From contig JAYENL010000254.1 in NCBI GenBank assembly GCA_034722055.1, positions 1 through 23,582 on the forward strand: 23,582 bases of DNA, in the 5' to 3' direction. This stretch comes from Armatimonadota bacterium (GTDB lineage Bacteria; Armatimonadota; Zipacnadia; Zipacnadales; UBA5352). This document shows positions 344 to 23,582 of this stretch, piece by piece; the stretch's first letter is position 1; each line of letters starts with the position of its first letter. The position numbers were made by a program, and so were the translations under genes. The notes below the pieces were generated by a model that was not told the origin of the DNA, did not search any database, and saw nothing but the letters and a program-made list of their open reading frames with translations.

Positions 344-3300
344 TCAGCGCGCCTCCAGCCACGCCACGATGTTCCGCAGGAGCTGACCGCAGGCGTCCAC
401 GGAGAGGCCCTCCGGCGCCGCCTCGGTGCCGATAACGTAGCGGTCCGGCGACGGCTGCGCCACGAGCACGCCACCCCCGACATCCGCCTCGAGGATCGAC
501 GGGTTCCCGTTCTCGTCGCGGGCCAGCACCGTCCACGCGTCATCCTCCCCGACGATGGTGTCGTAGGAGATGACTCCGGCGAGAGGACCGACCTGGCCGG
601 GCCTCGCGAAGATGGCGTGGTGGGGTACGATAATCTCCGCCAGCGCGCTGGAATCGTCGGATAGCCTCAGCGGCAGCGGCAGGTACCCGGCCTGGTAGCT
701 GGTGTTCTGGAGCTGGATGAGCGCCACGCGGCCCCCGGAGGCGATGAAGTCGCGGATCAGCGGCCAGCCCTCCTGCAGGCCACAGAAGTCCTTCTCGTGT
801 GCCTCGCTCCCGATCAGCAGCGCCCCATAGCCCGCCAGCGTGGCGGCGCTGAGGTCCGGCAGGGCCGGCAGCTCTACGCCGATCTCCCCCAGCGCAGCGG
901 CCACCGGGTCCTCCTCGCCCGTCACCAGTCCCACCGCGTCGCCGATGTCGATCCGCCGCCCTGCGCGCGGCCTGGCGGTGAGCGTGCCCTCCGTCTCGTG
1001 GACGCGATAGCGGACCGTGACCTGCCCCTCGCCCGCGCCGGTGAGGCTGAAGGCCGGCCCCGGCTGCACGCCGGACTCGGCCGTCCACTCCACCGCCATC
1101 GGCTCGGCTGAGACCCCGTCGGGCAGCTCCACGATCTCGGCCATGGCCTGGAGCGGCCGCCGACCGCGGTTGTTGACCCGCACTGCCAGCAGGCCGGGCT
1201 GGCCGGCGGCCATGTACACCATACGCCCCATGCCCACCTGGGGCTCGGGCGGCGGCGGAGCGGGCAGCGCGGTCATCCCCCACTGCTGCATGGCGCTGAG
1301 GGCGAAGGGCGTCATGCGAATCTGCATGGCGTAGCCCTTGCCGGAGCCGGACGGCCCGCGGTTGATGACCATGTCGCCCAGCGAGCGCTCCAGCATCTCG
1401 CGGTAGATCTCCTCGCCGGCGAGGTCGTAGGCGTGCGCGAGGCCCTCGCAGGCCATGTAAGTGCCGGCGTGCGTGGAGCTGTCGTCGTACTGCGGGCACT
1501 GGGCGTACTGGAAGCTGTTGTCCTCGGGATGCCACATGCGCCAGTGGATCCAGTCGGCGCTGCGCACGATGGCGTTCCTGAGGTCCGGGTCGGGATCGAT
1601 CTGATCCAGCATCTTCAGTCCGGTCATGACCACGCCGGTCATGAAGGTCTTCCCGCCCATGTGCCGCACCTCGTGCTCGCACTCGCCGATGCCGTGGATC
1701 AGCGTGCCGGTGCCGGGATCCTGGCGGGCGACGACGTTCTGGCAGAACAGGCGCGCCGCGTTGAGATACCACGGGTGCGGGACGACGTGGTAGCCGCCCA
1801 GCGCGGCGATGGTGGTCCAGCCGTACTGCCGATGCACCCACTGCGACAGCCGCGTGGCCTCCTCCCGCGCCATCCAGTCCACCAGCAGCATGGCCGCCTC
1901 GCGGTAGCGGCGGTCGCCGGTGAGGCAGTAGGTGGTGAGCGTGCCCTGCGACCACACGTGGCCGGTGTTCCAGATGCCATCGGAGAACCAGTAGGTCGCC
2001 CCCTCCGGGCGCTGGATGTCGAAGCCGCCCACGTGCCCCACGCAGTGGGCCTTCTGAATGCCCACCAGGCTCTCGCTGGGCGCCACGTGGATGGTGTCCA
2101 CCGCGGCGGTGTGCCGCGCCGCCTCCTCCGCCCGGTCGAAGAACCGCCAGTCGCCCGAGCGCGCGAAGTGCACCAGCAGGCCCCACTGCAGGTCATACTC
2201 CTGGTTCGTCCAGTTCACCCACCGCTCCCCGTGCGTGTCGCCGAAGTTCATCCAGTCGTACTCCCGCACCCTCCGCCGGCGCTCCTCCAGCGCCTCGAAG
2301 CCCTCATCCATGTAGGTCTGGAAGCTCTCGAACACGCCGGGCTGCTCGGGCTCCAGCGGCTCGCCGAGCACGCCCGATGCACACATGTGCTCGGGACTGG
2401 CGGTCAGCAGCGGGATGTGGTCCCACGCCACGTCCATGATCTCCTTGGCCTCGGTATCATCGAAGCAGTAGAACAGGAGGTCGTAGCTGAGGGCCACGCC
2501 CATGGGGATGGAGTACTTGCCGTCGCTGCACCAGTAGTAATGCTGGGTGCGCTCCAGCGGCTCCATCTCCTCATCGGCGTACTGGTCGGCCGGCAGCTTG
2601 GGGAAGATCTCGGCCACCAGCCGTGAGCCCTTCGCCGAGTAGGCCTTGGGATAGAGCTGCCAGAAGTCGCGCATGGTCACGCCCAGGCTGCGCTGGAGGC
2701 CATCCTCCTCGTAGCTGAGGCCGACGGCCGCGTTCGTGTGCCCCTCATGCTCCTCCGTCCGGTCGCCGCGCGTCACGATGTAGCGGTTGTCGTAATCGTG
2801 CAGCATTCGCGTGCCCTGCTGGATCACCCGCCAGGCGTGCTCTGCCTCCTCTCGCTCCTCCTGGTCGGCCTCGCCGGCGATCTCCTCCCGCGACATCTCC
2901 GCCGCGAACCGGATGGGAACCGTGAGGCTCTCGATAAGGGTCATGGTCGGCGGCCGCACGGAGGTGCCCTCATCGCCGATGAGTGTGAAGACCGTGGGCA
3001 CGCCCGCAAAGCCGCGATAGAAGTACATGCGCCAGCGCCAGCCCAGCAGCTCGCCTGCGTCACCGGCGAACCGGCCCTCGGCGAGGATCACGGTGCGCAC
3101 GGGGCCGGCCTCCTCGACCTCCAGCCGCTCCACCGGCTGACCGGCGGTGGAGTAGACGTGGCCCTCGGCGTCGGTGAGCACCGCGCCCTCATCGGCGATG
3201 GCGATCCGCTCACTCTCAGCGAACCGCCCGTCGCCGTCGATGTCTCGCCAGAGGTCGCCCGGCGGCGAGAAGCGCTGGCGCGAGATCTCCGCCCGCAGCA

Positions 3301-5077
3301 CGTTGGTCGTGACGCGCAGCCCGTCCGGAGTCTCCTCGACGCGAATGGGCTCCGCCACCTCCGGCTGGCTCACCTGCTCGCCGTACTCCAGCGCGTAGTC
3401 CCCGGCGTCGCCTTCGTGCAGCACGCTGACCAGCAGCCACTTCACGCTGCCGTCCGGCCACCACGCCAGCTCCGTGAAGCCCGCCGGGATCGCCTCCCCG
3501 CCCCGCAGCAGTCGGCAGTGCGAGGCGTCGCGCAGATGGCCCTTTGGGATGGGAATGCCGCCGCTGATGGGCCACGCAGGCCGATCCTCCACCGGGTCGG
3601 TGACGGACAGCTCGACCCGCGCCCGCTCCACGCCACAGCGCTCCGGCCGCAGCGGCTCAGCGACGAAGGTGGCCACCTCCGACTGCGCCTGGCCCTCGCC
3701 ACGTCCCGCGACTGCACGGAAGCTGTAGGTCGCGCCACGGTCCAGATCGCGCAGCGTGATGCGATGGTTGTAGGTGCTATCCTCCTCCTCGGCGACCTGA
3801 TCCAGCTCGCCGGCACCCCACTGCACGCGCCCGCTGCATGGCCGATTGGTCAGGAAGCACACATCGACATCGACCGTCTCGCCCCGCTCGTCCGGAGCGC
3901 AGAAGGTCTCGATATCGCTGATGGTCAGCCCCGGCGGCTGCAGCATCTCCCGCGTGATGGTCAGCTCCGAGATGCGAGCATCCTGGGCCGGCCCGTCGCA
4001 GACGAGGCGGATCGACTGGCCCTCGCGCAAGGCCACCGGCTCGGGCGTGGAGCAGATGCGGATGAGGCCATCGTCACTCGCGGCCACCACCAGCGCCACC
4101 AGCTCATCGTCCAGGAAGACCTGCACCCGCTCCTGCCGCTCGGGGCTGTCCTGCAACACTACGTTGAGGTGATAGCTGCCGGAGACCGGTGCCGAGAGGG
4201 TGGCCGAGGCGCCCTTCTCGTCGGCGACCAGCGACCGGTCCTCGATGTGCATGTCCTGCACCCGGGCGGCGGTGAGGTCGAGCGTCACGGCGTCCATGGC
4301 GCGAAGCTGCTCCCGCCACGACAGCCACGGCTCCTCCACCCACACGCCCTCCGAGAGCAGCTCCGAGATGGAGCCCACGCGGGGCTTGAGGCGGTCGGAC
4401 TCGCCGGGTCCGCACACGGTGAACCACTCCTCGGAGCTGTCCTGATCGCCACTGGGCGGGCGGTACTGGCTGAGCACGTAGGCGCGGTACTCGGTGTTGC
4501 CCTGCTCGTTGTGGTTGAGCTGCAGGTCCATGGAGTAATACACGGAGCTGCCGTCGATGTAGCCGCGCAGGTCGCGGTTGTCCGAGAGCACGTCGGCGTT
4601 GCGGATGCTGGGCTTGAAGGAGCCGCTGGAGAAGACCAGCATCATGTCGGTGCCCAGCGCACCATCCTGGCGGCCGGTGGCGGTATCGTTGTCGCAGTCG
4701 AGGTAGAGGATGAGGATGGTGCCGGGCTTCCGGAAGTCCTCGGCGAAGTCCAGCCGCCAGACCCAGCGGTCCCCGGCTGCATTGCCGAAGTACAGGTTCG
4801 TGAAGTCGTTGGCCTGCTCGAAGTTGCCCGCCACCTCATCGCCCTCGGCCACCGAGCCGTCCTGGAAGACCAGGTGCATGGTGTCCGCGTGCTCGTCGTC
4901 CATCCCCAGGACCTTCTCGGCCATGTCCGGGATGCCGTCGTTGTCGGCGTCGGGCTGATCGGTGGCCAGCTCCGCCACCGGCGCCGGCTGCGGAGTGCCA
5001 TCATCGTCGGTGTCCTGGGCGAAACACGGCACGGCGAGCAGAGCAAGTGCGGCAAAGCATCTCGCAAAGCGCTTCAT
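344..5077 (-). CDS. Large secreted multidomain protein (~1577 aa) with a PcRGLX/YetA-like (exo-rhamnogalacturonan lyase, PL26-like) core
   Basis: Start reassigned to ATG 5077 (MKRFARCFAALALLAVPCFA signal peptide, GGAGG upstream). Has a DADNDGIPDMAE Ca-binding-like repeat, an FN3-like segment (YNHRITLRDLDRGATYSFRAVA) and PcRGLX-type motifs WPISGGIPIPKG, WPDGSVKWLLV, EEAGPVRTVI, YDWMNFGD and WTNQEYD, followed by an alpha-toroid-like region. Confidence 0.8.
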   Translation of the reverse strand: MKRFARCFAALALLAVPCFAQDTDDDGTPQPAPVAELATDQPDADNDGIPDMAEKVLGMDDEHADTMHLVFQDGSVAEGDEVAGNFEQANDFTNLYFGNAAGDRWVWRLDFAEDFRKPGTILILYLDCDNDTATGRQDGALGTDMMLVFSSGSFKPSIRNADVLSDNRDLRGYIDGSSVYYSMDLQLNHNEQGNTEYRAYVLSQYRPPSGDQDSSEEWFTVCGPGESDRLKPRVGSISELLSEGVWVEEPWLSWREQLRAMDAVTLDLTAARVQDMHIEDRSLVADEKGASATLSAPVSGSYHLNVVLQDSPERQERVQVFLDDELVALVVAASDDGLIRICSTPEPVALREGQSIRLVCDGPAQDARISELTITREMLQPPGLTISDIETFCAPDERGETVDVDVCFLTNRPCSGRVQWGAGELDQVAEEEDSTYNHRITLRDLDRGATYSFRAVAGRGEGQAQSEVATFVAEPLRPERCGVERARVELSVTDPVEDRPAWPISGGIPIPKGHLRDASHCRLLRGGEAIPAGFTELAWWPDGSVKWLLVSVLHEGDAGDYALEYGEQVSQPEVAEPIRVEETPDGLRVTTNVLRAEISRQRFSPPGDLWRDIDGDGRFAESERIAIADEGAVLTDAEGHVYSTAGQPVERLEVEEAGPVRTVILAEGRFAGDAGELLGWRWRMYFYRGFAGVPTVFTLIGDEGTSVRPPTMTLIESLTVPIRFAAEMSREEIAGEADQEEREEAEHAWRVIQQGTRMLHDYDNRYIVTRGDRTEEHEGHTNAAVGLSYEEDGLQRSLGVTMRDFWQLYPKAYSAKGSRLVAEIFPKLPADQYADEEMEPLERTQHYYWCSDGKYSIPMGVALSYDLLFYCFDDTEAKEIMDVAWDHIPLLTASPEHMCASGVLGEPLEPEQPGVFESFQTYMDEGFEALEERRRRVREYDWMNFGDTHGERWVNWTNQEYDLQWGLLVHFARSGDWRFFDRAEEAARHTAAVDTIHVAPSESLVGIQKAHCVGHVGGFDIQRPEGATYWFSDGIWNTGHVWSQGTLTTYCLTGDRRYREAAMLLVDWMAREEATRLSQWVHRQYGWTTIAALGGYHVVPHPWYLNAARLFCQNVVARQDPGTGTLIHGIGECEHEVRHMGGKTFMTGVVMTGLKMLDQIDPDPDLRNAIVRSADWIHWRMWHPEDNSFQYAQCPQYDDSSTHAGTYMACEGLAHAYDLAGEEIYREMLERSLGDMVINRGPSGSGKGYAMQIRMTPFALSAMQQWGMTALPAPPPPEPQVGMGRMVYMAAGQPGLLAVRVNNRGRRPLQAMAEIVELPDGVSAEPMAVEWTAESGVQPGPAFSLTGAGEGQVTVRYRVHETEGTLTARPRAGRRIDIGDAVGLVTGEEDPVAAALGEIGVELPALPDLSAATLAGYGALLIGSEAHEKDFCGLQEGWPLIRDFIASGGRVALIQLQNTSYQAGYLPLPLRLSDDSSALAEIIVPHHAIFARPGQVGPLAGVISYDTIVGEDDAWTVLARDENGNPSILEADVGGGVLVAQPSPDRYVIGTEAAPEGLSVDACGQLLRNIVAWLEAR

Positions 5078-5255
5078 CGTGTGCCTCCACGGGACATGGC
5101 TGTTGAGACCAGGGGCCCTGACAGCGCGCCTTGCGCCGATTGCCGACATGCAGCAAGATGTCCGCCCACGGCCTGACCATCGGCCGTGTGCCGGACCTGC
5201 AAGACATACAAGCCCTGGACCGCGCTGAGCGCCTGCTCTGGCGCGGCCTGCGCGG

Positions 5256-5939
5256 CTACGGCCAGTCAGGATCCATGCGGAAGTCCCGGCTGGCGTAGAG
5301 CGTGGGCGGGTAGTAAGCGTGCGGGACCCGTTCGCCGCTGACCCACTTGGCGTGACCGTCGCACAATGTGTAGTTCGCTCCCCCGTTGTGCCGATCGTAG
5401 CGCCAGACGAAGTTCTTGTTACCCGCGTCGGCTTCGTTGAACCATCGGCCGTAGGGGAGGTTCCCGTCCTGTTCGACCAGCATGATCACGCTCGCGGGCT
5501 CCCTGATTCTGGCCAGCTTTACCGGCTGGATGTAGCAGAAGTTGTAGTTCCAGCCGTAGCCAAGCGGCGGGTCATACACTTTGAGGCTGCCTCCGGAGCC
5601 CTGAACATAGAAGTAGTCGCGCATCTGACTGGGGCATGAGAGTATCTCCCGGTTCTTCAGGTAGGGCTCAATGTAGACGTACCACACTGACCGGCCACCC
5701 GGGTGGATGAGCGTCTCCGCTGGCTCACCTCCGGAATTGTGATACTGCAGTGGCAGGCGTTCGTCATAGTCCTGCGTGTACATCAGCACCGCCAGGCCGA
5801 TCTGCTTCATGTTGCTCAAGCAGCTCGTCTGCCGGGCCTTCTCACGGGCCCTCGCAAAGACCGGGAACAGGATCGCTGCCAGGATGGCGATTATGGCGAT
5901 CACCACCAGCAGCTCGATGAGTGTGAAACCTCGCTTCAT
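5256..5939 (-). CDS. DUF1559 / prepilin-type N-terminal cleavage-methylation domain protein with H-X9-DG motif
   Basis: Start at ATG 5939 gives MKRG^[45 protein letters not shown]-terminal [17 protein letters not shown]. Confidence 0.93.
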
Positions 5940-6029
5940 TGTGCTCACCCCAGACTTGTGATAGGCGTTACACGTAGATTCGAGGCCTGACCACGGTATT
6001 CCTTCCACTTGCGGGATGCGTTCTCACAG

Positions 6030-6059
6030 AAAAAGCATGCGCCCCACCAGGCGGAGGCA
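6030..6059 (-). terminator. Possible intrinsic terminator of the rSAM operon
   Basis: On the - strand, directly after the 6060 stop: a weak GC stem (GCCTC...GGGGC) followed by GCATGCTTTTT. Confidence 0.3.
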
Positions 6060-6821
6060 TCAGGACGGACGAGATGCTCCCACCCGTGGGTGAGCTGCGA
6101 CCACCAGCACATAGGGCACGTGCAGGAAGACCTCCCACTCGCCACAGGCGCCCGCAAGGCGCTGCCGGGCCTCGGCCACGGCCTGCCGCTCGGCATCGCT
6201 CAGAGGCAGGTCGTCCAGCAGCGCCAGCGCCTCGGCCTCCGCCGGTCGGGGGATGTGCGCCAGCTCCACCCACGGGTCCAGGCCGGCGCCCTCGCAGAGC
6301 CCGGGCAGCCTCCGGCCGACGCGCGGGTCGGCCCCGGCTCGGCTCAGCCCGTCGAGCCAGGCATCGCGGAGACCCATGGGAGGCTGCTCGAGCATCCCGC
6401 CGTAGTCCGGCTCCAGGGCCACCACGCAGCCGCCGGGCCTGAGGACCCGCGCCGCCTCACCGATGGCCGCCTCGGCCTTCCCGAGCCACAGGAGGACGTT
6501 CTCGAAGAGCACGAGGTCGAAGCTGGCGTCGGCGAAGGGGAGCTGTTCGGCATCGCCGGCCACAGGCCAACAGTGCGGTACCGCGGCCCAGCCCGCCCGC
6601 CGCTGTCCCAGCAGTATCTCGGCATCACGGTCGAGGGCCACCACCTGACCGCGGGCACGCCGCACAAGCTCGCCCGTCACCACCCCATGCCCGCACCCCA
6701 CCTCCAGCACGCGCTCCCGGACGCCGATCCGCGCCCGCCGCAAGGCACGCGACCGCGGCCCGGCCAGCCACCGGGCCAGCGCACGCGACAGCTCCAGCCC
6801 CGGGCGCTCCGGTACGCTCAC
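6060..6821 (-). CDS. Class I SAM-dependent methyltransferase (Methyltransf_11/UbiE-like fold)
   Basis: Motif I VLEVGCGHG, VVALD, GDAEQLPFADASFDLV and RVLRPGG. Start taken as GTG 6821, which overlaps the upstream TGA (GTGA, 6821-6818). Confidence 0.9.
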   Translation of the reverse strand: MSVPERPGLELSRALARWLAGPRSRALRRARIGVRERVLEVGCGHGVVTGELVRRARGQVVALDRDAEILLGQRRAGWAAVPHCWPVAGDAEQLPFADASFDLVLFENVLLWLGKAEAAIGEAARVLRPGGCVVALEPDYGGMLEQPPMGLRDAWLDGLSRAGADPRVGRRLPGLCEGAGLDPWVELAHIPRPAEAEALALLDDLPLSDAERQAVAEARQRLAGACGEWEVFLHVPYVLVVAAHPRVGASRPS

Positions 6822-8635
6822 CGGCCGCCACCGGCGCAGGCGCAGGCGCACGCGCAGCCGGCGCAGGCACAGGCGCAGCCGCCGCCCCCACTGAACCCGC
6901 CGCTGCCGCCGCTGGACTCGGCCATCGACTCCAGGAAGTCCATGCTGACCCTGTCCACGCCGGACAGGTCCATGACCTGGCTGTCAACAAGCCCGACGCT
7001 GACGGGGTCCATGGTGGCGGCCATGCGCCCGGTGACGTTCTCCGACCACCCCGCGAAGGAGGCCGCCACGTCGCCGAAGCTGGTCCGGTCGCCCGGCGCG
7101 GGCGCGGCCACGGTGGGGGCCTCGCCCGCCGGACGCGCCCAGCCCGGCGAGTAGTGATAGCCGGTGCGATGCCAGGTGTGGAAGTGCCGCGGGTAGCCGT
7201 CATCGAGCATCAGCCAGCCGATGTTGCTGTCCACGTACTCGTCGCGGCGCTCCACGTCGCCGATCTGCCGCGCCTCCGACCAGGCGTCGGCGACGATGGA
7301 CTGGTAGTACTCCCGGGTGCGCTCCAGATCGAAGCCCGCCATGCGCTCGGCGAGCTGATTGACGAGATGGCGCATCTGTTTGCTCAGGTCCAGGTCCGGG
7401 ATCGGCACGCCGGGCCGCTCCATGACGGCGTCCAGGAACGGCTGCTCGTAGCCGCGAACGACCGTCCCCAGCTTCGCCGCCACCTCCCGGCGCTCTCCAC
7501 GCGTGGTCCTGAAGTGCTCCGGGACCTCCACCGTCACCGGGTCATCGTTGATCATCACCACGAGGCCCTTCTTCAGCATCCCGAAGACCACCAGCGCCAA
7601 CACCTGGCCGAGCGGGCGCTCCAGCAGCACCGCCGCCTCGGGGGCCGTCAGCCCCCGCTTGATCTCCCCGCCCGGCACGGACTCAATGGGCGGCAGATAC
7701 GAGCGGCGCCGTGACGCTATCAGCCGGTCGCCCAGCAGCCACAGAAGGATCAAGACCGGGATGGCTACCAGCTCCAGCGTGGGCCCCAGCGGATTCGGCA
7801 GCGACCACAGGACCGGCAGGGCGATGACCAGAGGGATGAACAGGCAGGTGCCGGTGCCGCCGGTAAGCCGGAAGTACCACAGCGAGAACAGGATCAGCAG
7901 CACAATCCCCACGACCACCCGCGCGGTGCCGCTCTCCGTCCACCACTTCCACGCCAGGTCCAGCGCGGTCTGCCTCACCACCTGCTCCATCCAGTCCCTG
8001 GGGAAGGACAGGCCCACCATGTGCGCGTGGGACAGGCGCGTGTCAGCGAACACCCACGCGACAGCCTTGCGGCCCTCGAGCTGCATCTTGCGGTCGAAGG
8101 GCCGGTCGAGCTGGTAGACGACGTCGTCGGGATTCACCGAGTCCGGCAGATAGACCACGATCATGAGGTCCGTGGTCTCAGTCAGGAGGTCGCTATCGAA
8201 CCACGTCGGCGTGATGCGCAGGGAGGCCAGCTCCGCGTTGGTCGTGTCCTGATAGACCCGGTTGGGCATGGTGGCCTCAAACTCGAAGGTCCCGGTCTGG
8301 TTGGGCTGGATGGGAGGGCTCAGCGGCACCTCCACGCCCACGTCAACGTACTCCGAGGGCCGGATGGTTCGCTGGGGCATGCCGTTGAGCGACGCGCTCA
8401 TGTTGGCGATGTTGTAGTCGCGGTCCGGCAGCCCGATGTCCACGATGTCAATGGGGTCGGCGCCCCCGTTGCAGTGCAGCTTGATCGTGTACTGCAGCGT
8501 GACGGAGGCGTCAACATTCGGCGTGACCTCGAAGCGCATCTGAGGCACCGAGAACGAGTAGTCCTGCGCCTGGGCGGCGCTGCCCGTCACGAACGCGAGC
8601 GCGGCACAGACGAGCATCCACCGGGCGCGTGTCAC
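6818..8635 (-). CDS. Membrane protein (signal peptide, extracytoplasmic beta-domain, ~3 TM, cytoplasmic domain) with a Gly/Ser linker and a C-terminal (Cys-Ala)n tail; DUF2207-like architecture
   Basis: Signal MTRARWMLVCAALAFVTGSAAQA. Hydrophobic segments VVVGIVLLILFSLWYF, CLFIPLVIALPVLWSL and LVAIPVLILLWLLG, followed by RRR. Ends SSGGSGGFSGGGGCACACAGCACACACAGGGR. GTG start overlaps the upstream TGA, with GAGGTG SD. Confidence 0.88.
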   Translation of the reverse strand: MTRARWMLVCAALAFVTGSAAQAQDYSFSVPQMRFEVTPNVDASVTLQYTIKLHCNGGADPIDIVDIGLPDRDYNIANMSASLNGMPQRTIRPSEYVDVGVEVPLSPPIQPNQTGTFEFEATMPNRVYQDTTNAELASLRITPTWFDSDLLTETTDLMIVVYLPDSVNPDDVVYQLDRPFDRKMQLEGRKAVAWVFADTRLSHAHMVGLSFPRDWMEQVVRQTALDLAWKWWTESGTARVVVGIVLLILFSLWYFRLTGGTGTCLFIPLVIALPVLWSLPNPLGPTLELVAIPVLILLWLLGDRLIASRRRSYLPPIESVPGGEIKRGLTAPEAAVLLERPLGQVLALVVFGMLKKGLVVMINDDPVTVEVPEHFRTTRGERREVAAKLGTVVRGYEQPFLDAVMERPGVPIPDLDLSKQMRHLVNQLAERMAGFDLERTREYYQSIVADAWSEARQIGDVERRDEYVDSNIGWLMLDDGYPRHFHTWHRTGYHYSPGWARPAGEAPTVAAPAPGDRTSFGDVAASFAGWSENVTGRMAATMDPVSVGLVDSQVMDLSGVDRVSMDFLESMAESSGGSGGFSGGGGCACACAGCACACACAGGGR

Positions 8636-9912
8636 CGCACCTCACCACCTTGGCGATCATCGCTCCAGCCCGCCGGGTCCTTGGGGCAGTCGGCGCTGCA
8701 GATGGGCAGGTCCGGGCAGTCGGGGCAGCGCGTGGGCTGCTTGAGGCGCTCGCGATAGCGCTCGAAGGCCTCGTGGCCCCAGATGTCCGCCCAGGCATCC
8801 GCCAGGAGGTTCCCCGCAGCCTGGGCGCCGCGCGGGGGCAGCACCGTCCCGTCGGCCCGCACCCGGATGGTGATGTCCGCGGAGGTGCGGGGGCCGGCCA
8901 GGACTTGCTCGGCCAGGCCGCGAGCGCTGTCGAAGCGCACCGGGGGCGCCCACAGGTAGCGGGCCTGCGTGCTCTCCGCCAGCTCAATGAAGGTCGTGGC
9001 CACCTGCGGCAGGGCCCGGGCGGGCAGGGCGCCGGAGGCGTCGGCGGCCTCGTCCTCGTCCGGGCAGGCGATGGCGAAGCCCACGATGTTCGTGACCCCC
9101 AGCTCTTGCAGCCGTCCCATCATCTCGTCCAGGTCCGCGAGGTTGGCGTCGATCAGCGGCACCTGCGCCACCACCGCCAGCTCCAGAGCCTGCGCCTGCT
9201 TCACCGCGGCCACGAAGGCCGCGTAGTCCCCCTCGCCGCAGGTCGCATCATGCTCGGCGCGGTCGTGGCAGACGAAGAGCAGGTCGAGGTGGTCCAGCCC
9301 CGCCATGGCGCAGGCCTCGATGACCTGCGGTCCGCTTGACTCCCCGGAGCCGAGCCAGCCGGCGACCGTCCGCAACCCGCAGATCATGCCGATGTCCTCC
9401 GCCGCCTCCACCAGCAGCACAAGCTGCGCCACGTCCCCGGCCGGGTCGGTCTGGATGGCCGCGTGGGGAATCCCGGCGTCCCACAGGCGACGGATGAGCT
9501 GCTTGAAGCGATCCAGCTCGCACTGCTCCACGTCCGCCCGCAGCGGCGCCGCAAGCTGGCGCTGCCACTCCGAGAAGCGGGGGTCGGTGAGGTTGCTGAC
9601 GGGGTAGTTATCGCCGGGCTTGGAGAGGTCGGCGATCAGCTCCTGCACCGCCGCCAGGTCCGCCTGGACCTGACTCTCCGGCGCGCCCGGGAAGCTCTGC
9701 ATGACCCCGGAGACGATCTCCTCCTCGGCGCGCTCCTCCAGGATGCCTCGCGCCATGCGGACGCCGACCGGGGACAGGTAGGCCGCCTCCGCCGCGTTCG
9801 CCAGCAGCAGCCCTCGCCCGTCGGGATCGATCCGCAGGTGGAAGCGCGTCGGCCACTCGCCGACCAGCCGCTCGTAGGGCCTGATGTCTACGCCGTTCGG
9901 CCTGTCTGACAC
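8632..9912 (-). CDS. Degenerate radical SAM/SPASM paralogue lacking CxxxCxxC (putative pseudo-enzyme partner)
   Basis: GTG 9912 with GAGGTG SD 8 nt upstream. Colinear with the upstream rSAM protein (FHLRIDPDGRGLL; APLRAD; RLWDAGIP; AGLDHL; AGNLLADAWADIW; CPDCPDLPICSADCP) but has no CxxxCxxC or GGEP. Confidence 0.85.
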   Translation of the reverse strand: MSDRPNGVDIRPYERLVGEWPTRFHLRIDPDGRGLLLANAAEAAYLSPVGVRMARGILEERAEEEIVSGVMQSFPGAPESQVQADLAAVQELIADLSKPGDNYPVSNLTDPRFSEWQRQLAAPLRADVEQCELDRFKQLIRRLWDAGIPHAAIQTDPAGDVAQLVLLVEAAEDIGMICGLRTVAGWLGSGESSGPQVIEACAMAGLDHLDLLFVCHDRAEHDATCGEGDYAAFVAAVKQAQALELAVVAQVPLIDANLADLDEMMGRLQELGVTNIVGFAIACPDEDEAADASGALPARALPQVATTFIELAESTQARYLWAPPVRFDSARGLAEQVLAGPRTSADITIRVRADGTVLPPRGAQAAGNLLADAWADIWGHEAFERYRERLKQPTRCPDCPDLPICSADCPKDPAGWSDDRQGGEVR

Positions 9913-11339
9913 CGGCTCATCACCTCGCCTCGCCTTGCTCTGAGTTCCAGGGGACAGCCCCCGCCACACAGCCTCAGATGCTCGCAGTCGTGGCACTCGG
10001 GCGGCAGGTCGGAGCGCTCGGGGTGTTCCCGCCGGAATCGGATGCTGGTGAACAGGTCACTCTCCCAGATGCTCTCCCAGTCGTCGCGGAGGATGTTGCC
10101 CGCCGGCTGGTAGTAGGACTGGCAGGGCAACACGTCGCCATTGGGCTCCACGCACACGGAGTACTCGGCGGCATTGCAGAATCGCAGCCCCAGGCCCATC
10201 TCCGCGGGCGAGAGCTCGCAGTGTCGCGTCACGGTGTACCAGATGAAGCGCATCCCCCGCGCCCCCGCCCGGTCGCGCACCCGCGCCACGACCTGGCGGA
10301 GGCGCTCGATGCTCAGGGCGTCGGGGTGGTCTGTGCCGCGGCCGGAGTGGATGATCCCGTTCATCGCGAAGGTCGTCAGCCCCAGCCCCGCGAGGAAGTC
10401 GATGATCGCCTCCGCGTCGGCCGCGTTGTCCTCGGTGAGGGTGGTGTTGGTGATAGTGTGCAGCCCCGCGTCGAGGGCATTGCGGATGCCCGCCACCGTC
10501 TCGTCATACGCCTCGGCGCGGACAATGCGGTTGTGCGGCTCCCGCCGGTGCGACGCGAGCGTGATCTGCACGTGATCGAGCCCGGCCCGCGTGAGTCGCT
10601 CGACCAGCTCCCGGTCGGCGAGCCGCCGGCCGTTCGTGTTCATGCCGCACACCTGGCCGAGGAACTCAGCGTGCTCGACGAGGTCGAGCAGGTCCGGGTG
10701 CAGCGTGGGCTCGCCCCCGGTGAGGATGACGTAGGGTACGCCGATGTCCCAGAGGCGCTCGAGCACCAGCCACCAGTGCTCGACGTTGAGCGACCGCATC
10801 TCCCGGCGCTCGGGCTCGTTGTAGCAGTGCGCGCAGTCGTTGTTGCAGGCGTAGCTCAACGCCAGATCGGCCTTGTAGGGCGCCTGCGCGCGCACCGACA
10901 GCGGCGGCGGCTGCGGGATGCCCAGCTCGCAGATCACGCAGCCCTCCGCGGGTTGCCGCAGCTTCCGCATCGCCGCGGCCATGCGATCGTACTCGGACCG
11001 CAGCGCGAAGTCGCGCACCCCCGGGTAGAAGGTCCGCAGGCGCACGAGCGCCCGGTCGGCGGGCGTGTCGTCGAGCGCCGGCTCGGCCATCTCCACCTGC
11101 TGGGGACCGAGCAGCAGCGCGTCGGTCACGTTGCGCCACAGCACGCCGGTGCCGTCCTCGTGCACGCGCAGGTGCAGGCGCACGCGTCCTTCCGGCGTCT
11201 CGAAGCGCCAGTGGCGCATGCGCACGCCGCGCCGGGGCCGCAGCGCCCCAAGCCGCGCGCCCAGCCGGCCGAGGTCGGCGCGGATCTCTGCGCCCGCGCG
11301 CCTGGCGATACGGCCGAAGAAGGACGAACCGCTTACCAC
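9888..11339 (-). CDS. Radical SAM/SPASM-domain protein with a PqqD/RRE-like N-terminal domain
   Basis: CNNDCAHC at 10824-10847, ILTGGEPT, NTNG, SPASM CNAAEYSVCVEPNGDVLPC...GNIL...CHDCEHLRLCGGGCP. Start GTG 11339 with GAGGAG SD, overlapping the upstream stop. The ORF-track extension to 11930 overlaps other genes. Confidence 0.93.
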   Translation of the reverse strand: MVSGSSFFGRIARRAGAEIRADLGRLGARLGALRPRRGVRMRHWRFETPEGRVRLHLRVHEDGTGVLWRNVTDALLLGPQQVEMAEPALDDTPADRALVRLRTFYPGVRDFALRSEYDRMAAAMRKLRQPAEGCVICELGIPQPPPLSVRAQAPYKADLALSYACNNDCAHCYNEPERREMRSLNVEHWWLVLERLWDIGVPYVILTGGEPTLHPDLLDLVEHAEFLGQVCGMNTNGRRLADRELVERLTRAGLDHVQITLASHRREPHNRIVRAEAYDETVAGIRNALDAGLHTITNTTLTEDNAADAEAIIDFLAGLGLTTFAMNGIIHSGRGTDHPDALSIERLRQVVARVRDRAGARGMRFIWYTVTRHCELSPAEMGLGLRFCNAAEYSVCVEPNGDVLPCQSYYQPAGNILRDDWESIWESDLFTSIRFRREHPERSDLPPECHDCEHLRLCGGGCPLELRARRGEVMSRCQTGRTA

Positions 11340-11674
11340 TTGGGCTTCTCCTCGAGCTGGTAGGTCGTGCCGCAGTACGGGCACTTCACGTAGATGGCGC
11401 CCTCCCGCATCTCGATGGCGTCGGAGTCGAGCTGGGCCCCGCAGGAATTGCAGCGCAGGCGCTCGAGCTCCGTGTCGCCGGTGAAGTCTACCTTGTGGGT
11501 GATCTTGGTCTCCGGGCCCTTTGAGCGCGCCAGGTAGACCAGGAACCCCGCCGCGCCCAGCAGCACCACGCCGATGATCACGCGCGGCAGCGCGTTGCCC
11601 TGACCGGCCGCCACCAGGAAGATCAGTCCCGCGACTCCGAGGACGATCGCAAGCAGGTATCCAGCGGTCTTCAT
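11333..11674 (-). CDS. Small membrane protein: 2 TM helices plus a C-terminal CxxC...CxxC zinc ribbon
   Basis: MKTAGYLLAIVLGVAGLIFLVAAG and VIIGVVLLGAAGFLVYLARSK helices; LRCNSCGAQL...VKCPYCGTTYQLEE; 113 aa; stop overlaps the rSAM start. Confidence 0.85.
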   Translation of the reverse strand: MKTAGYLLAIVLGVAGLIFLVAAGQGNALPRVIIGVVLLGAAGFLVYLARSKGPETKITHKVDFTGDTELERLRCNSCGAQLDSDAIEMREGAIYVKCPYCGTTYQLEEKPKW

Positions 11675-11892: not shown

Positions 11893-13281
11893 ATGGCTGC
11901 CGGCGATCGGCCCAACATACTCTTCATCATCTCCGACGACCAGTCGTTCCCCCATGTCAGCTACGCCGGCGATCCCGTGGTGCGGACGCCCAACTTCGAC
12001 CGCGTGGCCCACCAGGGCGTCATCTTCACCAACGCCTACGTCTCCTCGCCCTCATGCACTCCCTCGCGCGCCTCGGTGCTGACCGGCCGGAATCACTGGG
12101 AGCTGCGCGAGACCGGCAACCTCTGGAGCCTCTGGCCCGGGTGGGCGACATACACACAGCGATTCGCGGACGCCGGCTATCACGTCGGCTACTCGGCCAA
12201 GGGCTGGGCGCCAGGCCGCCGGGAGGACATGCGCGAGAACAACCCCGCCGGCCCCCGCTACGCGGATGTCCGCGAGTTCCTGGCCGCCGACTCCGGAGGG
12301 CGGCCGTTCTGCTACTGGTTCGGCAGTCACCGTCCCCACCGGCCCTACGTGGAGGGCTCCGGCGTGCAGGCCGGCATGAGCCTCGACGACGTGCCGGTGC
12401 CTCTGTTCTTTCCTGACGCCGAGCCCCTGCGCGCCGACATCGCCGACTACTACCTGCAGTGCCAGATGTACGACGCGCAGATCGGCGAGATCCTGGCGGC
12501 CCTGGAGGAGGCCGGCCGGCTGGAGAACACGCTCATCGCGGTGACCAGCGACAACGGCATGCCCTTCCCCCGCTGCAAGGCCAACCTCTATGACTTCGGC
12601 ACGCGCATGCCGCTGGCGGTCGCCTGGCCGGGGGTCATCGAGGGCGGGCGCATCGTGGATGACTTCGTCAGCTTCGCCGACTTCGCCCCGACCTTCCTGG
12701 AGGCCGCGGGCCTTCAGCCGCTGCCACACGCATCGGGCCGTAGCTTCCTGGACGTGCTCACCAGCGGCCGATCCGGCCGCGTCGATCCCCAGCGCGACCG
12801 CGTGCACTGCGGGCGCGAGCGCCATGCCATCTTCGGCACCGGCGGCGTCGGCTACCCCATGCGCTCGCTCCGCACCGACCGGTTCCTCTACATCCGCAAC
12901 TTCGCGCCCGACCGCGGGCCGGCCGGCAACCCGCCGCTCTACGGGGATGTGGACCCGGGCATCACCAAGCGCTACATGATCCGCAATCGTGACCTGCCCC
13001 AGGTGGCGCCGCTGTTCGAGCTGGCCTTCGGCGGACGCCCGCCGGAGGAGCTTTACGACCTGCGGCGCGACCCCGCACAGATGGTCAACGTGGCGCACCT
13101 GCCGGAGTACGAGGAGATCCGGCGCCGGCTGTGGGACGAACTGGAGAGCTACCTGGCGGCCACCGGTGATCCGCGCCTGGAGGACGATAGCTTCGACTTC
13201 GACACACAGGAGTACTTCGGCGGCCGGGCCTGGGCGCCCCGGCGGCAGCCGGAGGTGTTCACCCGCCGGCCACGGCCCTGA
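11893..13281 (+). CDS. Formylglycine-dependent sulfatase (family S1, Cys-type; resembles N-sulfoglucosamine sulfohydrolase-like members)
   Basis: RPNILFIISDD, SCTPSRASVLTGR (CxPxR), TSDNGMPFPRCKANLYDFGTRMPL, EELYDLRRDPAQMVN; GGAGG SD; no signal peptide. Confidence 0.95.
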   Translation: MAAGDRPNILFIISDDQSFPHVSYAGDPVVRTPNFDRVAHQGVIFTNAYVSSPSCTPSRASVLTGRNHWELRETGNLWSLWPGWATYTQRFADAGYHVGYSAKGWAPGRREDMRENNPAGPRYADVREFLAADSGGRPFCYWFGSHRPHRPYVEGSGVQAGMSLDDVPVPLFFPDAEPLRADIADYYLQCQMYDAQIGEILAALEEAGRLENTLIAVTSDNGMPFPRCKANLYDFGTRMPLAVAWPGVIEGGRIVDDFVSFADFAPTFLEAAGLQPLPHASGRSFLDVLTSGRSGRVDPQRDRVHCGRERHAIFGTGGVGYPMRSLRTDRFLYIRNFAPDRGPAGNPPLYGDVDPGITKRYMIRNRDLPQVAPLFELAFGGRPPEELYDLRRDPAQMVNVAHLPEYEEIRRRLWDELESYLAATGDPRLEDDSFDFDTQEYFGGRAWAPRRQPEVFTRRPRP

Positions 13282-13303
13282 TACAGCCTGAGAGGTGACA
13301 CGG

Positions 13304-15574
13304 ATGGCCGACTTCACGGCGACCGAGCGCGGCGTTTCGGTGTGCGATGAGGGAACGATGCTGGCCGAGTTCTGCGCGCCGGGCATCCTCCGCATTCGCG
13401 GCTGGCGCGGCGATGAGCCGCGGATGTCCCCGTTGCTCCGCTACGACCTGTGGCGGCGCCAATGGCCCCAGGTGCAGGTCGAGACGCGCGTGGAGGCCGA
13501 TGGGGCCGTCGCGACCACCGACCTGCTGGCGGTCGAGATGGACGCTGACGCCTCCTTCCGCGTGCTGAACGCGGACGGCGCGGAGCTGCTGGCGACCTTC
13601 CAGCGCCCCATGCTCGGGCCGGCGCCGGGCTTTCGCGCCCGGTTCGCCCTGGAGCAGGCCGATCGCTTCTACGGCCTGGGCGATCAGACCCGGGAGCGCA
13701 TCCAGCACCGGGGGACGAGCGGCGATCTGTGGGTGCGCAACGTCGAGGAGTACATCCCCATCCCCTTCGTGATCTCCACCCGCGGCGTGGGGCTGCTGGT
13801 GCAGACCACCCGCCGCGTCCTCTACGATCTCGGCGCCACCTCCGACGACTGGTTCGGCTTTGAGGCCGAGGGCCAGCACCTCGACCTCTACGTCATCTAC
13901 GGGCCGGAGCCGCTTCAGATCGTCGAGCGCTACACGCGCATCACGGGCCGTCCGATGTTGCCGCCGCGGTGGGGCTTGGGCCTGTGGTTCATCTGTCGCA
14001 CACAGGCGGACGCGAAGGAGTTCACCGACGACTGCCGCAACTTCCGGCGCGAGGGCATCCCCTGCGACTGCATCGGCCTGGAGCCGGGCTGGATGCAGAC
14101 GAACTACGACGCCTCGGTGGAGAAGACCTGGAGCGACGAGCGCTTCCGCATCCCTCCCTACAGCCGCTTCCGCCACACCTTCTTCGCCGCCGCCCAGCGC
14201 ATGGGCTTCAAGCCGGGCCTGTGGCTGTGCAATGACTACGACCTCTCCTATGAGGAGGAGCGGCGCGTCGATCCCGAGCTGAAGCAGGCCGAGCAGCAGC
14301 GCGACGCGGAGCGCGCGGCCTTCGCCACAGGCCACGAGGTGGACGAGCGCCCTTCGGGTCAGCGCCGCCTCGACCGCCTCACGCGCCAGGAGGAGCCGTG
14401 GTTCCAGCACCTGCAGCGCTTCGTGGACGAGGGCGCGCACTGGTTCAAGCAGGACGGCGCCTACCAGGTCCTCGAGCATCCCGATCGCCTGTGGGGCAAC
14501 GGGATGACCGACGCGCAGATGCACAACCTCTACCCCCTCATCTACTCCAAGCAGATGTACCTGGGCTTCCGGGAGCATACCGAGCGGCGGACCTTCCCGT
14601 TCACGCCCGCCGGCTGGGCCGGCCTGCAGCGCTGGACCGGCACCTGGACCGGCGACACCGGAGGCGAGGAGGGCCCGCTGGGAGCCTGCCTGAACCTCAG
14701 CCTCTCCGGACACGGCCTCAGCACCGTGGACATGGAGGCCGGCACGCCGGAGGGCATCCACTTCGGCTTCCTCCTGCCCTGGGCGCAGCTCAACTCCTGG
14801 AACTACTGGCGGCACCCGTGGCTGCAGGGGGAGCGCCTGCAGTGCATCTTCACCGACTACGCCCGCCTGCGCTACCGGCTGCTGCCCTACCTCTACTCCT
14901 GCGCCTGGCAGGCCCACCGCACGGGCGTGCCCATGATGCGCGCCATGCCGCTCGTTCACGACCAGCCGGACGCGGACGAGTGCCTCCGGCAGTTCTATCT
15001 GGGCCCCTCCCTGCTGGCGGGCTGCTTCACCGACCGGCTGTGGGTGCCCGGGGGCCAGTGGCACAACTTCTGGACCGGCGAGCGCTTGGACGGCGGCGGA
15101 TGGATCAGCCCGGAGGTGCCCGAGGGCCGCGGCGGGCCGCTGCTGGCTCCCGCGGGCGGGATGCTGCTGATGGGTCCGGAGATGGACTACGTCGGTCAGC
15201 GGCCGGACGATGAGCTGACGGTGCACGTCTTCGCCGGCGCGGCCGGCGAGATCACGCTCTACGAGGACGATGGCGAGACCTTCGCCTTCGAGGAGGGCGA
15301 GTACCGCACCCAGCGCATCTGCCACGAGCCGGTGGGCGACGGCCTGGGCGTGCACTTCGGCCCCGCGGAGGGCGAGTTCGAGGGCGCACTCGCCCGCCGG
15401 GAGCTGACCGTGGTGGCGCACGGCCTGCAGGACGTGACCAGCGTGGTCCTCGACGGGGAGGCGATCGCCCCATCGGCAGACGGCCCGCGGCCTCGCTGGC
15501 AGTGGCAGGCGAACGTGGTCACCGTGGAGCTGGGCCGGCGCGACGTGGGGCGCCTGGAGCTGGTTATCGAGTAG
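13304..15574 (+). CDS. Glycoside hydrolase family 31 (alpha-glycosidase)
   Basis: FYGLGDQ, IPIPFVIS, YTRITGRPMLPPRWGLG, FRREGIPCD, WFKQDG (nucleophile position), WTGD (acid/base), LRYRLLPYLYS, GVPMMRAM, LYEDDGET. ATG 13304 is preferred over GTG 13295 because of the GAGGTG SD. Confidence 0.92.
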   Translation: MADFTATERGVSVCDEGTMLAEFCAPGILRIRGWRGDEPRMSPLLRYDLWRRQWPQVQVETRVEADGAVATTDLLAVEMDADASFRVLNADGAELLATFQRPMLGPAPGFRARFALEQADRFYGLGDQTRERIQHRGTSGDLWVRNVEEYIPIPFVISTRGVGLLVQTTRRVLYDLGATSDDWFGFEAEGQHLDLYVIYGPEPLQIVERYTRITGRPMLPPRWGLGLWFICRTQADAKEFTDDCRNFRREGIPCDCIGLEPGWMQTNYDASVEKTWSDERFRIPPYSRFRHTFFAAAQRMGFKPGLWLCNDYDLSYEEERRVDPELKQAEQQRDAERAAFATGHEVDERPSGQRRLDRLTRQEEPWFQHLQRFVDEGAHWFKQDGAYQVLEHPDRLWGNGMTDAQMHNLYPLIYSKQMYLGFREHTERRTFPFTPAGWAGLQRWTGTWTGDTGGEEGPLGACLNLSLSGHGLSTVDMEAGTPEGIHFGFLLPWAQLNSWNYWRHPWLQGERLQCIFTDYARLRYRLLPYLYSCAWQAHRTGVPMMRAMPLVHDQPDADECLRQFYLGPSLLAGCFTDRLWVPGGQWHNFWTGERLDGGGWISPEVPEGRGGPLLAPAGGMLLMGPEMDYVGQRPDDELTVHVFAGAAGEITLYEDDGETFAFEEGEYRTQRICHEPVGDGLGVHFGPAEGEFEGALARRELTVVAHGLQDVTSVVLDGEAIAPSADGPRPRWQWQANVVTVELGRRDVGRLELVIE

Positions 15575-19825: not shown

Positions 19826-19842
19826 CAGTATCTCCCTCATCG

Positions 19843-22475: not shown

Positions 22476-23582
22476 CTACGTATACACAAACTGCGCCGTG
22501 GCGGTGCAGTCGCGGTCGGCGACCACGCGCGTCCAGTGCGCCGAGAAGCCCTCCGGGAAGACGTGCGTCCGCTGCTCCCCTCCGCCCACGGTGACGGCCT
22601 CCGCGGCGGCGAAGGTCCCGTCGCCGAGCGCGTCCACCTCGATGGTGAACTCCACCGGCCCGGCGGAGAGCTGCGAGAGGTGCAGGCAGGTGCGCTGGAA
22701 GCCGGTCATGAGGAAGGGGTCAGATGGCTCGCCGGCCTCCACCCGCGTGCGCCGCCACGGCCCTCCCCAGCCGGCGGGCCGGCCGAAGCTCCACAGGTCA
22801 TCGGTCTTCCCAAGCCACAGGTTCGCCTGCGGCTGGCCCTGGTGCAGCACGCTGTCGCCGGTTGGGGTGCACTGGTTCCCGCCCAGCACCAGCAGGCCCA
22901 TCCAGGTGCAGAAGTCGGGGATGATGCGCAGGTGCTGGCAGATGGGCTTCATCGGGAGGACGTCGCCGCCGTAGGCCTGCGCGGGAAGCTCGTAGAACAT
23001 CCCGTGGCAGTCCATCAGGAAGCGCTCCGTCTCCACCTCCCGGATGCGCGTCCACTCCGTGAGCCAGCCGTGGTCGTAGCATTGGCTGGCCTTGGGGAGG
23101 CGGTAGGTCCGCCATCGGCCCCCGGTAAGCACCTTCAGGATCGCCGACGCCTCATCCCAGCCTGTGGCGAAGACCGCCTGGCCGAGATTCCGCCGGCCGG
23201 CGACCTCCATGAAGGGCCTCTCCTCGATCAGCCGCCACATCTCGCCGTCCCACTCCCCGAGGCGGCCGGCGGCGCGCCTGCCCAGATACTCCGGCTCATC
23301 GTAGGTGTTGTTGGCGACGATCACCCGGCCCATGGCGGTGTGGGCGCCCTTGAAGTGCGGCCAGGCGTCCTCCGGCATGCCAAGCTCCCCACGGACGTCG
23401 AAGAGGACCTCGCAGGCCAGGCTCTCCACGTCCACCTCGATGAGCAGCCCCTCCATGGTCAGGAAGTAGACGAGACGCCCGGGGTCGTAGAGATGCTCCA
23501 CCGTGGCCGTCAGGCGGTGCTCCACCAGGGGCTCGATGGTCCGGACCTCGCCGTCGGCGTCGATGATGTGCGGGCCGATGAT
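22476..23582 (-). CDS. Hypothetical protein, probably beta-propeller fold (5' partial, start outside the window)
   Basis: The frame is open to the window edge (IIGPHIIDADGEVRTIEPLVEHRL...). Beta-rich sequence with HFKGAHT, WTRIRE, HLRIIPDFC and GGPW; coding-like codon usage. Confidence 0.8.
   Translation of the reverse strand: MIGPHIIDADGEVRTIEPLVEHRLTATVEHLYDPGRLVYFLTMEGLLIEVDVESLACEVLFDVRGELGMPEDAWPHFKGAHTAMGRVIVANNTYDEPEYLGRRAAGRLGEWDGEMWRLIEERPFMEVAGRRNLGQAVFATGWDEASAILKVLTGGRWRTYRLPKASQCYDHGWLTEWTRIREVETERFLMDCHGMFYELPAQAYGGDVLPMKPICQHLRIIPDFCTWMGLLVLGGNQCTPTGDSVLHQGQPQANLWLGKTDDLWSFGRPAGWGGPWRRTRVEAGEPSDPFLMTGFQRTCLHLSQLSAGPVEFTIEVDALGDGTFAAAEAVTVGGGEQRTHVFPEGFSAHWTRVVADRDCTATAQFVYT

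Follow-up and report, generated by a model that had tools for sequence, protein, structure and literature searches.

To our knowledge, hardly any work has addressed pseudoenzymes of the canonical radical S-adenosylmethionine (SAM) superfamily. TIGR04347 (NCBIfam pseudo_SAM_Halo, "pseudo-SAM/SPASM protein") is a named pseudo-enzyme family; it is haloarchaeal and AhbC-like, lacks the CxxxCxxC triad, and occurs in a haem-pathway context. Here we describe a catalytically dead radical SAM/SPASM paralogue, PSE, and its intact neighbor, ACT, an enzyme–pseudoenzyme pair inside an undescribed protein-modification operon of five genes, abbreviated in their order as ZN, ACT, PSE, MEM, and MT. The operon was found in a 23,582-nt stretch of DNA from an uncultured Armatimonadota bacterium (GenBank assembly GCA_034722055.1, contig JAYENL010000254.1, positions 1–23,582, forward strand), which is referred to below, at its full length, as the window. 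PSE is comparable to TIGR04347 as a pseudo-enzyme, but scores only 16 bits against that model (cutoff 525), and differs from it in having an RRE-like domain and in being encoded in a protein-tail operon.

Several other described systems share part of this arrangement. In the CrpC/CrpA system of Methanococcus voltae, the substrate of an RRE–radical SAM–SPASM enzyme is an entire protein, which receives ranthionine-type thioethers in its C-terminal Cys-rich repeats; modification was more extensive with the accessory protein CrpB (PMC13692751). Unlike ACT and MEM, CrpC belongs to the TIGR04463 family and acts on a soluble substrate with C-X-X-Q/D repeats; the consulted parts of that report describe no dead paralogue, membrane substrate, or methyltransferase, and CACACAG, DUF2207, Armatimonad, and CHSACHSA are all absent from its three text supplements. 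HxsB and HxsC resemble ACT and PSE as two co-encoded radical SAM proteins that mature a repeat-bearing envelope protein; in the consulted parts of the report, however, processing depends on the first cluster of each and is abolished when either is mutated, no complex was seen, and the substrate is of the His-Xaa-Ser type (PMC13128918). ACT scores 61 against TIGR03977 (cutoff 268), MEM of the window contains no HxS repeats, and PSE lacks the triad, so the pair falls outside the HxsB/HxsC type. Dph1–Dph2 serves as functional precedent for an asymmetric paralogue pair, being a paralogous heterodimer derived from a homodimer, with one non-catalytic subunit, a protein substrate, and the small metal-binding carrier Dph3 (PMC11048331; PMC8251694). 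Its non-canonical radical SAM fold is unrelated to the TIM-barrel SPASM family, and the site that is deleted in PSE still carries an Fe-S cluster in Dph2. The RRE–radical SAM–SPASM/Twitch maturases SkfB, CteB, and SuiB, which act on peptides made by the ribosome and modified after translation (RiPPs), have their three-domain fold in common with PSE and are its best structural matches; they are, however, monomeric active enzymes working on short leader-core peptides, while PSE has no SAM cluster. Like MEM, the TIGR04222 membrane proteins found with MNIO enzymes carry Gly/Ser-rich, Cys-containing C-terminal tails that are proposed substrates of RiPP-type enzymes, but the enzyme class is different and the tails are variable and predicted to be periplasmic (PMC12452194, consulted in part); MEM has no TIGR04222 match. 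No description of the PSE family or of the operon was found in a literature search in which subscription journals were mostly outside coverage and supplements were searched for one paper only.

The features on which the pair is defined are as follows (PSE being termed type A to distinguish it from a second kind of dead partner described below).

8632..9912, minus strand: PSE (type A), a 426-aa catalytically dead paralogue of ACT, with an RRE-like domain at about residues 9–97, a partial TIM barrel without cluster loop, and a degenerate SPASM domain.
9888..11339, minus strand: ACT, a 483-aa intact RRE-like + radical SAM + SPASM enzyme with CxxxCxxC at C165/169/172, GGEP, and eight invariant SPASM-side Cys.
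9517..9549, minus strand: point in PSE, APLRADVEQCE, where the CxxxCxxC loop is missing through an in-frame deletion of 22 residues (66-nt equivalent), located by BLASTP and profile comparison.
8686..8727, minus strand: the Cx2Cx5Cx3C motif of PSE (C396, C399, C405, C409), defined by homologue alignments.

ACT is recognized by the Pfam models Radical_SAM (E 1.3e-28) and SPASM (E 1.7e-10), its catalytic and SPASM columns are invariant across 34 orthologues, its structural model has a predicted local distance difference test score (pLDDT) of 89, and its best solved relatives are SkfB, PqqE, BlsE, and SuiB. BLASTP aligned PSE to ACT over its full length (25% identity, 422 columns, E 4e-33), with a single 22-residue gap in PSE falling exactly on ACT LALSYACNNDCAHCYNEPERREMRSL. 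Profile–profile comparison of 34 paired orthologues (probability 100%, E 3.5e-62) returned an identical 22-column gap. The deletion of the CxxxCxxC loop and the loss of GGEP, proposed earlier from manual alignment in a sequence-only reading of this DNA, were thus confirmed, GGEP being replaced by QTDP; TNG is changed to TVA and QITLxS to LDLLFV. That reading had also named two replaced SPASM cysteines (CNAA to TSAD, VLPC to VLPP); both changes are present, but the loss extends to four SPASM-side residues, ACT C374, C388, C396, and C406 (483-aa numbering). The comparisons show a protein that, judged by its motifs, should be unable to bind SAM in the canonical way. PSE matched no Pfam or NCBIfam model above its cutoff, and automatic annotation labels its homologues "radical SAM" or "SPASM" proteins. 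The reading frame is open from the GTG at 9912 to the TGA at 8632 (426 codons), with a GAGGTG 8 nt 5' of the start; the start region overlaps the final 25 nt of the ACT gene, and the stop overlaps the MEM start as GTGA. An uninterrupted, ribosome-site-bearing frame coupled to the next gene, as originally reported, is therefore present. A further ACT motif, C-x-x-C (C134/C137; window 10931-10940), is located between the RRE and the barrel; C134 does not vary among 34 type-A enzymes, and its place is taken by Tyr in PSE and by Asp in type B.

Next, we investigated the age of the lesion and the selection acting on PSE. A homologue search yielded 188 proteins, of which the best 120 were aligned (46–100% identity; the few with names being from Armatimonadota). 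When representatives at 50% identity were searched with profiles, 150 proteins were listed; 123 scored best on the PSE model, and 57 of these are full length. CxxxCxxC occurred within the first 300 residues in 0/120 of the close homologues, and the triad in 0/57 of the distant full-length representatives listed; GGE was present anywhere in residues 120–230 in one of the 57. Of 58 PSE sequences in which the distance across the loop could be measured, 54 span 24 residues, compared with 45–46 in 55 of 61 ACT sequences. This constant short length, shared among orthologues as the earlier proposal required, indicates that the deletion was one old, precise event. The ratio of nonsynonymous to synonymous substitution rates (dN/dS, Nei-Gojobori) was 0.12–0.34 for PSE and 0.16–0.39 for ACT over the same 15 chosen pairs of loci, values that are if anything high, since the method underestimates dS at this GC content. 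With dN/dS far below 1, a confident predicted fold, and many full-length homologues, the suggestion of selection rather than decay is upheld: PSE is no pseudogene, but a protein that folds and is maintained. The barrel carries no other conserved Cys set in the 120 close and 57 distant homologues that could rebuild a SAM cluster. C283 was considered as a new cluster ligand and rejected: it is present in 116/120 close homologues, but is unconserved in the 57 distant ones, where Cys is outside the five commonest residues at that column.

The AlphaFold2 model of PSE (pLDDT 87; predicted template modeling score, pTM, 0.87) contains the partial TIM-barrel fold and resembles SkfB (Z 19.0, root-mean-square deviation 4.8, 313 residues aligned), CteB, and SuiB, as well as viperin (Z 18.6). 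For SkfB and SuiB the similarity includes the N-terminal RRE region: in the model, strands at residues 9–46 are followed by three helices, aligning with the N-termini of SkfB and SuiB from residue 22. By sequence, PF05402 (RRE/PqqD-like) matched PSE only at E 0.024, below cutoff, and the PSE profile found no match among Protein Data Bank sequences at E 0.001. Thus, as modeled, PSE is shown to keep the maturase fold. Invariant residues specific to PSE face or lie near the barrel (R181, D173, H221, G340-P341-R342, and R350).

The retained C-terminal cysteines are highly conserved. Each Cys of the motif is kept in 116–119 of the best 120 homologues and in 48–49 of the 57 distant full-length representatives listed. 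The exact Cx2Cx5Cx3C is missing in 10/57 distant type-A proteins, some by truncation or frameshift, and at least three (P0255, P0273, P0337) have apparently intact ends without these Cys, an apparent natural loss. The seven-cysteine SPASM motif, CX9-15GX4C-gap-CX2CX5CX3C-gap-C as defined in the consulted part of PMC6231123, is represented in PSE by CX2CX5CX3C only, and PSE scores below cutoff against both SPASM models (PF13186, 19.8 vs 21.5 bits; TIGR04085, 22.6 vs 27 bits). In anSME, the corresponding Cys 317/320/326 are ligands of auxiliary cluster II (Aux II) and Cys 330 is a ligand of Aux I, while the fourth Aux II ligand is a Cys further downstream (PMC5715301, consulted in part). A Cys anywhere downstream of the motif was found in only 3/59 type-A PSE sequences, compared with 16/63 ACT sequences. 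The earlier view that one SPASM cluster site is retained therefore holds for the Cx2Cx5Cx3C motif, but the site is not a complete canonical one; from its sequence, PSE may hold a cluster with three Cys, or else a site remodelled to use all four with Fe-S or Zn.

The remaining genes and elements of the operon are listed below.

11333..11674, minus strand: ZN, 113 aa, encoded at the head of the operon; two hydrophobic segments mark its N-terminus, and a CxxC...CxxC zinc-ribbon its C-terminus.
6818..8635, minus strand: MEM, a 605-aa DUF2207-like membrane protein with a signal-like N-terminus, a soluble domain, three to four hydrophobic segments, and a C-terminal domain that closes with a Gly/Ser linker followed by a Cys-Ala tail.
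6821..6877, minus strand: the MEM tail, CACACAGCACACACAGGGR, the likely substrate.
6060..6851, minus strand: MT, a class I SAM-dependent methyltransferase and the last gene of the operon (Pfam Methyltransf_11, E 8.9e-20).
6040..6059, minus strand: a terminator-like hairpin and T run, immediately past the stop codon of MT (2 such hairpins in the region vs 1.1 expected, weak alone).

ZN, a possible membrane-bound metal or electron carrier whose zinc-ribbon Pfam matches are weak and below cutoff, is found in nearly every locus that is not truncated by the end of a contig. The position of MT in the operon is conserved, and its true start may lie a few codons downstream. The order ZN-ACT-PSE-MEM-MT is constant across genomes of the order and metagenome contigs. 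ACT is directly upstream of PSE in 52 of 63 distinct loci (7 at a contig edge, 4 non-adjacent; 50 counted by script plus L065 and L109, which were missed as PSE is cut at the contig end there), and MEM is directly downstream in 56 of 63 (5 at a contig edge, 2 non-adjacent). Unrelated genes inserted between ACT and its partner include a 684-codon membrane protein (L054:6575-8626) and two open reading frames (L068:2608-4004), and an insert of ~2.7 kb occupies this position in L141, L142, and L145. To examine linkage across the phylum, we surveyed 401 genomes (thresholds E<1e-130 for ACT orthologues and E<=1e-120 for type-A PSE). PSE was present in 38 genomes plus one fragment and an ACT orthologue in 39, of which 37 carry PSE; conversely, 36 of the 38 PSE genomes carry the ACT orthologue, the other two being contig breaks. 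The Cys-Ala tail pattern at the DNA level was detected in 42/401 genomes, with 0 in a reversed control, and the three sets nearly coincide, the exceptions being two genomes with ACT but no partner (G187, G032), a match in an unrelated frame (G107), a cut operon (G179), and a tail beside a more distant enzyme (G333). As these genomes are related and not independent, the counts show linkage and not many separate events. PADLOC returned no match for PSE, MEM, or ZN.

MEM has no Pfam or NCBIfam match, including none to PF09972 or PF20990 (DUF2207) at E 0.1, and no match among plasmids; its DUF2207 likeness comes from the ESM Atlas only, where look-alikes include DUF2207 clusters (feature score 0.93–0.95, TM 0.45–0.49). 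A hydropathy scan places a signal-like segment and one or three membrane segments before the tail, which is thus likely to be cytoplasmic. The tail, preceded by the Gly/Ser linker, is invariant although MEM is elsewhere only ~30% identical. Its invariance, the flexible linker in front of it, its likely cytoplasmic location, and its co-variation with the enzyme make the tail the likely substrate of ACT. ACT with the MEM tail shows the ranthi-/sactisynthase arrangement, in which an RRE–radical SAM–SPASM enzyme is next to a Cys-rich candidate substrate. The register of the repeats is (CA)2-3-G-(CA)4-GGGR in 49/49 type-A operons (preceded in one by an additional CV) and (CA)3-5-G-(CA)3-GGGR in 15/15 type-B operons, a contrast that, with 11 loci left out of the counts, represents one clade-level difference and not 64 tests. 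One of the 11, L128, has the type-A register although ACT and MEM have no partner gene between them. In L150:688-4099, MEM occurs as a tandem pair, with four CA units preceding the central Gly in one copy and five in the other. More distant, partner-less ACT relatives adjoin membrane proteins with other Cys-repeat tails, including CHSA repeats beside a more distant RRE–radical SAM–SPASM enzyme (L163:2975-4789, G382; L164:8763-10016, G149) and CACACVSCACACAC beside more distant enzyme relatives in L161 and L162. Genome G382 holds both the CHSA-tail and the Cys-Ala systems. Short membrane proteins in L158:6462-7502, L161:6304-7335, and L162:2294-3313 have a Cys-Ala tail followed by GGGGAGCSRK and CxxC, with a partner-less enzyme adjacent.

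The second kind of dead partner, type B, was found in metagenome loci L129–L156 (18 distinct sequences), with the gene order ZN-MEM-ACT-partner-MT. Its lesion is of the opposite kind: GGEPT and the length of the loop persist, other residues stand in place of the triad, and the protein stops short of Cx2Cx5Cx3C. An example in L130:8299-9471 is ~380 aa long and contains no SPASM cysteines. Common to types A and B are the RRE-like N-terminus and the barrel, while the cluster Cys are not shared. In phylogenetic trees, types A and B each formed a fully supported group on a long stem, and ACT subclades track the partner type. A and B were placed on one side in a quick tree (SH-like approximate likelihood ratio test 93), but in only 14% of bootstraps of a careful 32-row tree, and formed a polytomy in a careful 40-row tree, whose bootstrap was not fully settled. 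In the 40-row tree, the triad-less proteins P0354 and P0365, which may be decaying copies, fall beside two separate intact enzymes (95/87 and 100/99), indicating that loss of the triad recurred. The triad is also missing or altered in the ACT-like proteins P0382, P0393, and P0326, the last having a CxxxCxxC that ends in CG and not CY or CF.

Considering these observations together, we regard it as an even call that PSE is a non-catalytic subunit helping ACT to bind and crosslink the Cys-Ala tail. PSE would have arisen by duplication of ACT and would bind ACT, an ancestral homo-oligomer thereby becoming a heterodimer with one active site. The MEM tail would be the substrate of ACT, and by analogy with CrpC the most likely chemistry would be thioether crosslinking of the repeated Cys, each crosslink accounting for −2 Da, with MT adding methylation. 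The RRE-like domain and empty barrel of PSE could supply a second grip on the tail over several turnovers, as suits multi-site processing, and the four C-terminal Cys might ligate a metal (remodelled Fe-S or Zn) in a structural or accessory capacity that is not the essential function. The sequence-only reading had left the subunit's role open between substrate scaffold, electron relay, and regulator; a scaffold is favored, the two types sharing RRE and barrel, and a relay is weakened, because type B has no cluster Cys and some operons have no partner, while that PSE is a subunit at all we infer. It is possible, though on balance doubtful, that these are the first canonical radical SAM/SPASM enzyme–pseudoenzyme heterodimers acting on a full-length membrane protein, in which the dead partner sets the grip on the tail and the count from the C-terminal GGGR (four CA after the central Gly in type A, three in type B), and in which dead partners arose more than once by different lesions. 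The operons provide a matched natural series, with no partner, a partner with the SAM loop deleted and four SPASM Cys, or a partner with the loop but no cluster ligand, in which one can ask directly what an RRE–barrel scaffold contributes and what an Aux II-like site does in isolation, a matter long unsettled for SPASM enzymes. They also hint at an undescribed radical modification of a membrane-protein tail in uncultured Armatimonadota and other bacteria.

Several observations weigh against such a subunit. The co-encoded radical SAM proteins of the HXS system formed no stable association, so that co-encoding need not mean a complex (PMC13128918, consulted in part). PSE is non-adjacent to ACT in the four loci counted above. 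G187 (a single contig, 97% complete) and G032 have ACT, ZN, MEM, and MT, yet no dead partner was found anywhere in either, nor was one found with the more distant enzymes of G333 and G303; the partner is therefore not intrinsic to the chemistry. A pure scaffold needs none of the four C-terminal Cys, which are kept in ~85% of very diverse type-A proteins. The only in-frame ACT–PSE fusion, a single 942-codon frame in L063:7085-9910 (G017), probably reflects a lost stop and lends no support: GGAGAGGAG, which is ribosome-site-like, and an ATG remain at the junction, and a search for longer, fused homologues gave none among 8000 candidates (weak evidence). The paralogous rows all align to the first half of the fused frame.

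Alternatively, PSE alone might bind the MEM tail or its product as a chaperone, a protector, or a metal- or cluster-loading reader that acts before or after ACT, or as a competitive regulator, forming no stable complex with ACT. The translational coupling of type-A PSE to MEM, its adjacency to MEM (56/63) at least as often as to ACT (52/63), the split operons L064 and L103, which keep PSE with MEM, and the invariant residues of its own near the barrel are consistent with this role. By contrast, type-B partners follow ACT and not MEM in gene order, and ACT subclades track the partner type, making a stand-alone function unlikely, if still a serious contender. A somewhat slimmer prospect is that the C-terminal Cys of PSE hold a [4Fe-4S] cluster relaying electrons between ZN (zinc-ribbon/rubredoxin-like) and the clusters of ACT, as proposed for Dph2/Dph3. 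Besides the conservation of the four Cys in distant type-A proteins, ZN is a constant member of the operon, the electron route proposed for anSME is its surface cluster, Aux II (PMC5715301), and the Dph2 cluster has been called regulatory and is needed for activation by Dph3 (PMC11048331), both reports being consulted in part. However, type-B partners have no such Cys, the exact motif is missing from 10/57 type-A representatives including at least three with apparently intact ends, ACT itself carries a complete set of SPASM Cys, and PSE lacks the canonical fourth Aux II ligand. That PSE is a neofunctionalised enzyme carrying out non-radical or non-canonical second-step chemistry on the tail, for example with a three-Cys cluster with an open iron, seems improbable: the long stem after duplication (1.6–1.9 changes per column) followed by strong constraint, the new invariant Arg residues, and the different tail registers of type-A and type-B operons would fit, but all SAM-binding motifs are lost, and the equivalent slot is elsewhere empty or filled by a ligand-free protein. 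Finally, a decaying pseudogene left by tandem duplication is practically out of the question despite a few frameshifted or truncated PSE copies (L074, L127), being refuted by the conservation data, namely the low dN/dS, at least 57 full-length clusters at 50% identity, and the confident predicted fold.

Divergent from the operon are an open reading frame at 11893-13281 (+) with a CTPSR motif, which from its sequence motifs we take to be sulfatase-like, and then one at 13295-15574 (+), presumably glycoside-hydrolase-like. A role of the operon in sulfatase maturation was rejected, as a sulfatase homologue is present in only 7/124 loci including the window, mostly close relatives. Downstream of the operon, window 5256-6008 (−) encodes a protein with a prepilin-type N-terminus; homologues are present in 15/124 loci, and the family is common in these genomes. 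The window further contains large open reading frames with signal-like N-termini or no known function at 344-5149, 17504-19900, 19843-22278, and 22476-23525 (−).

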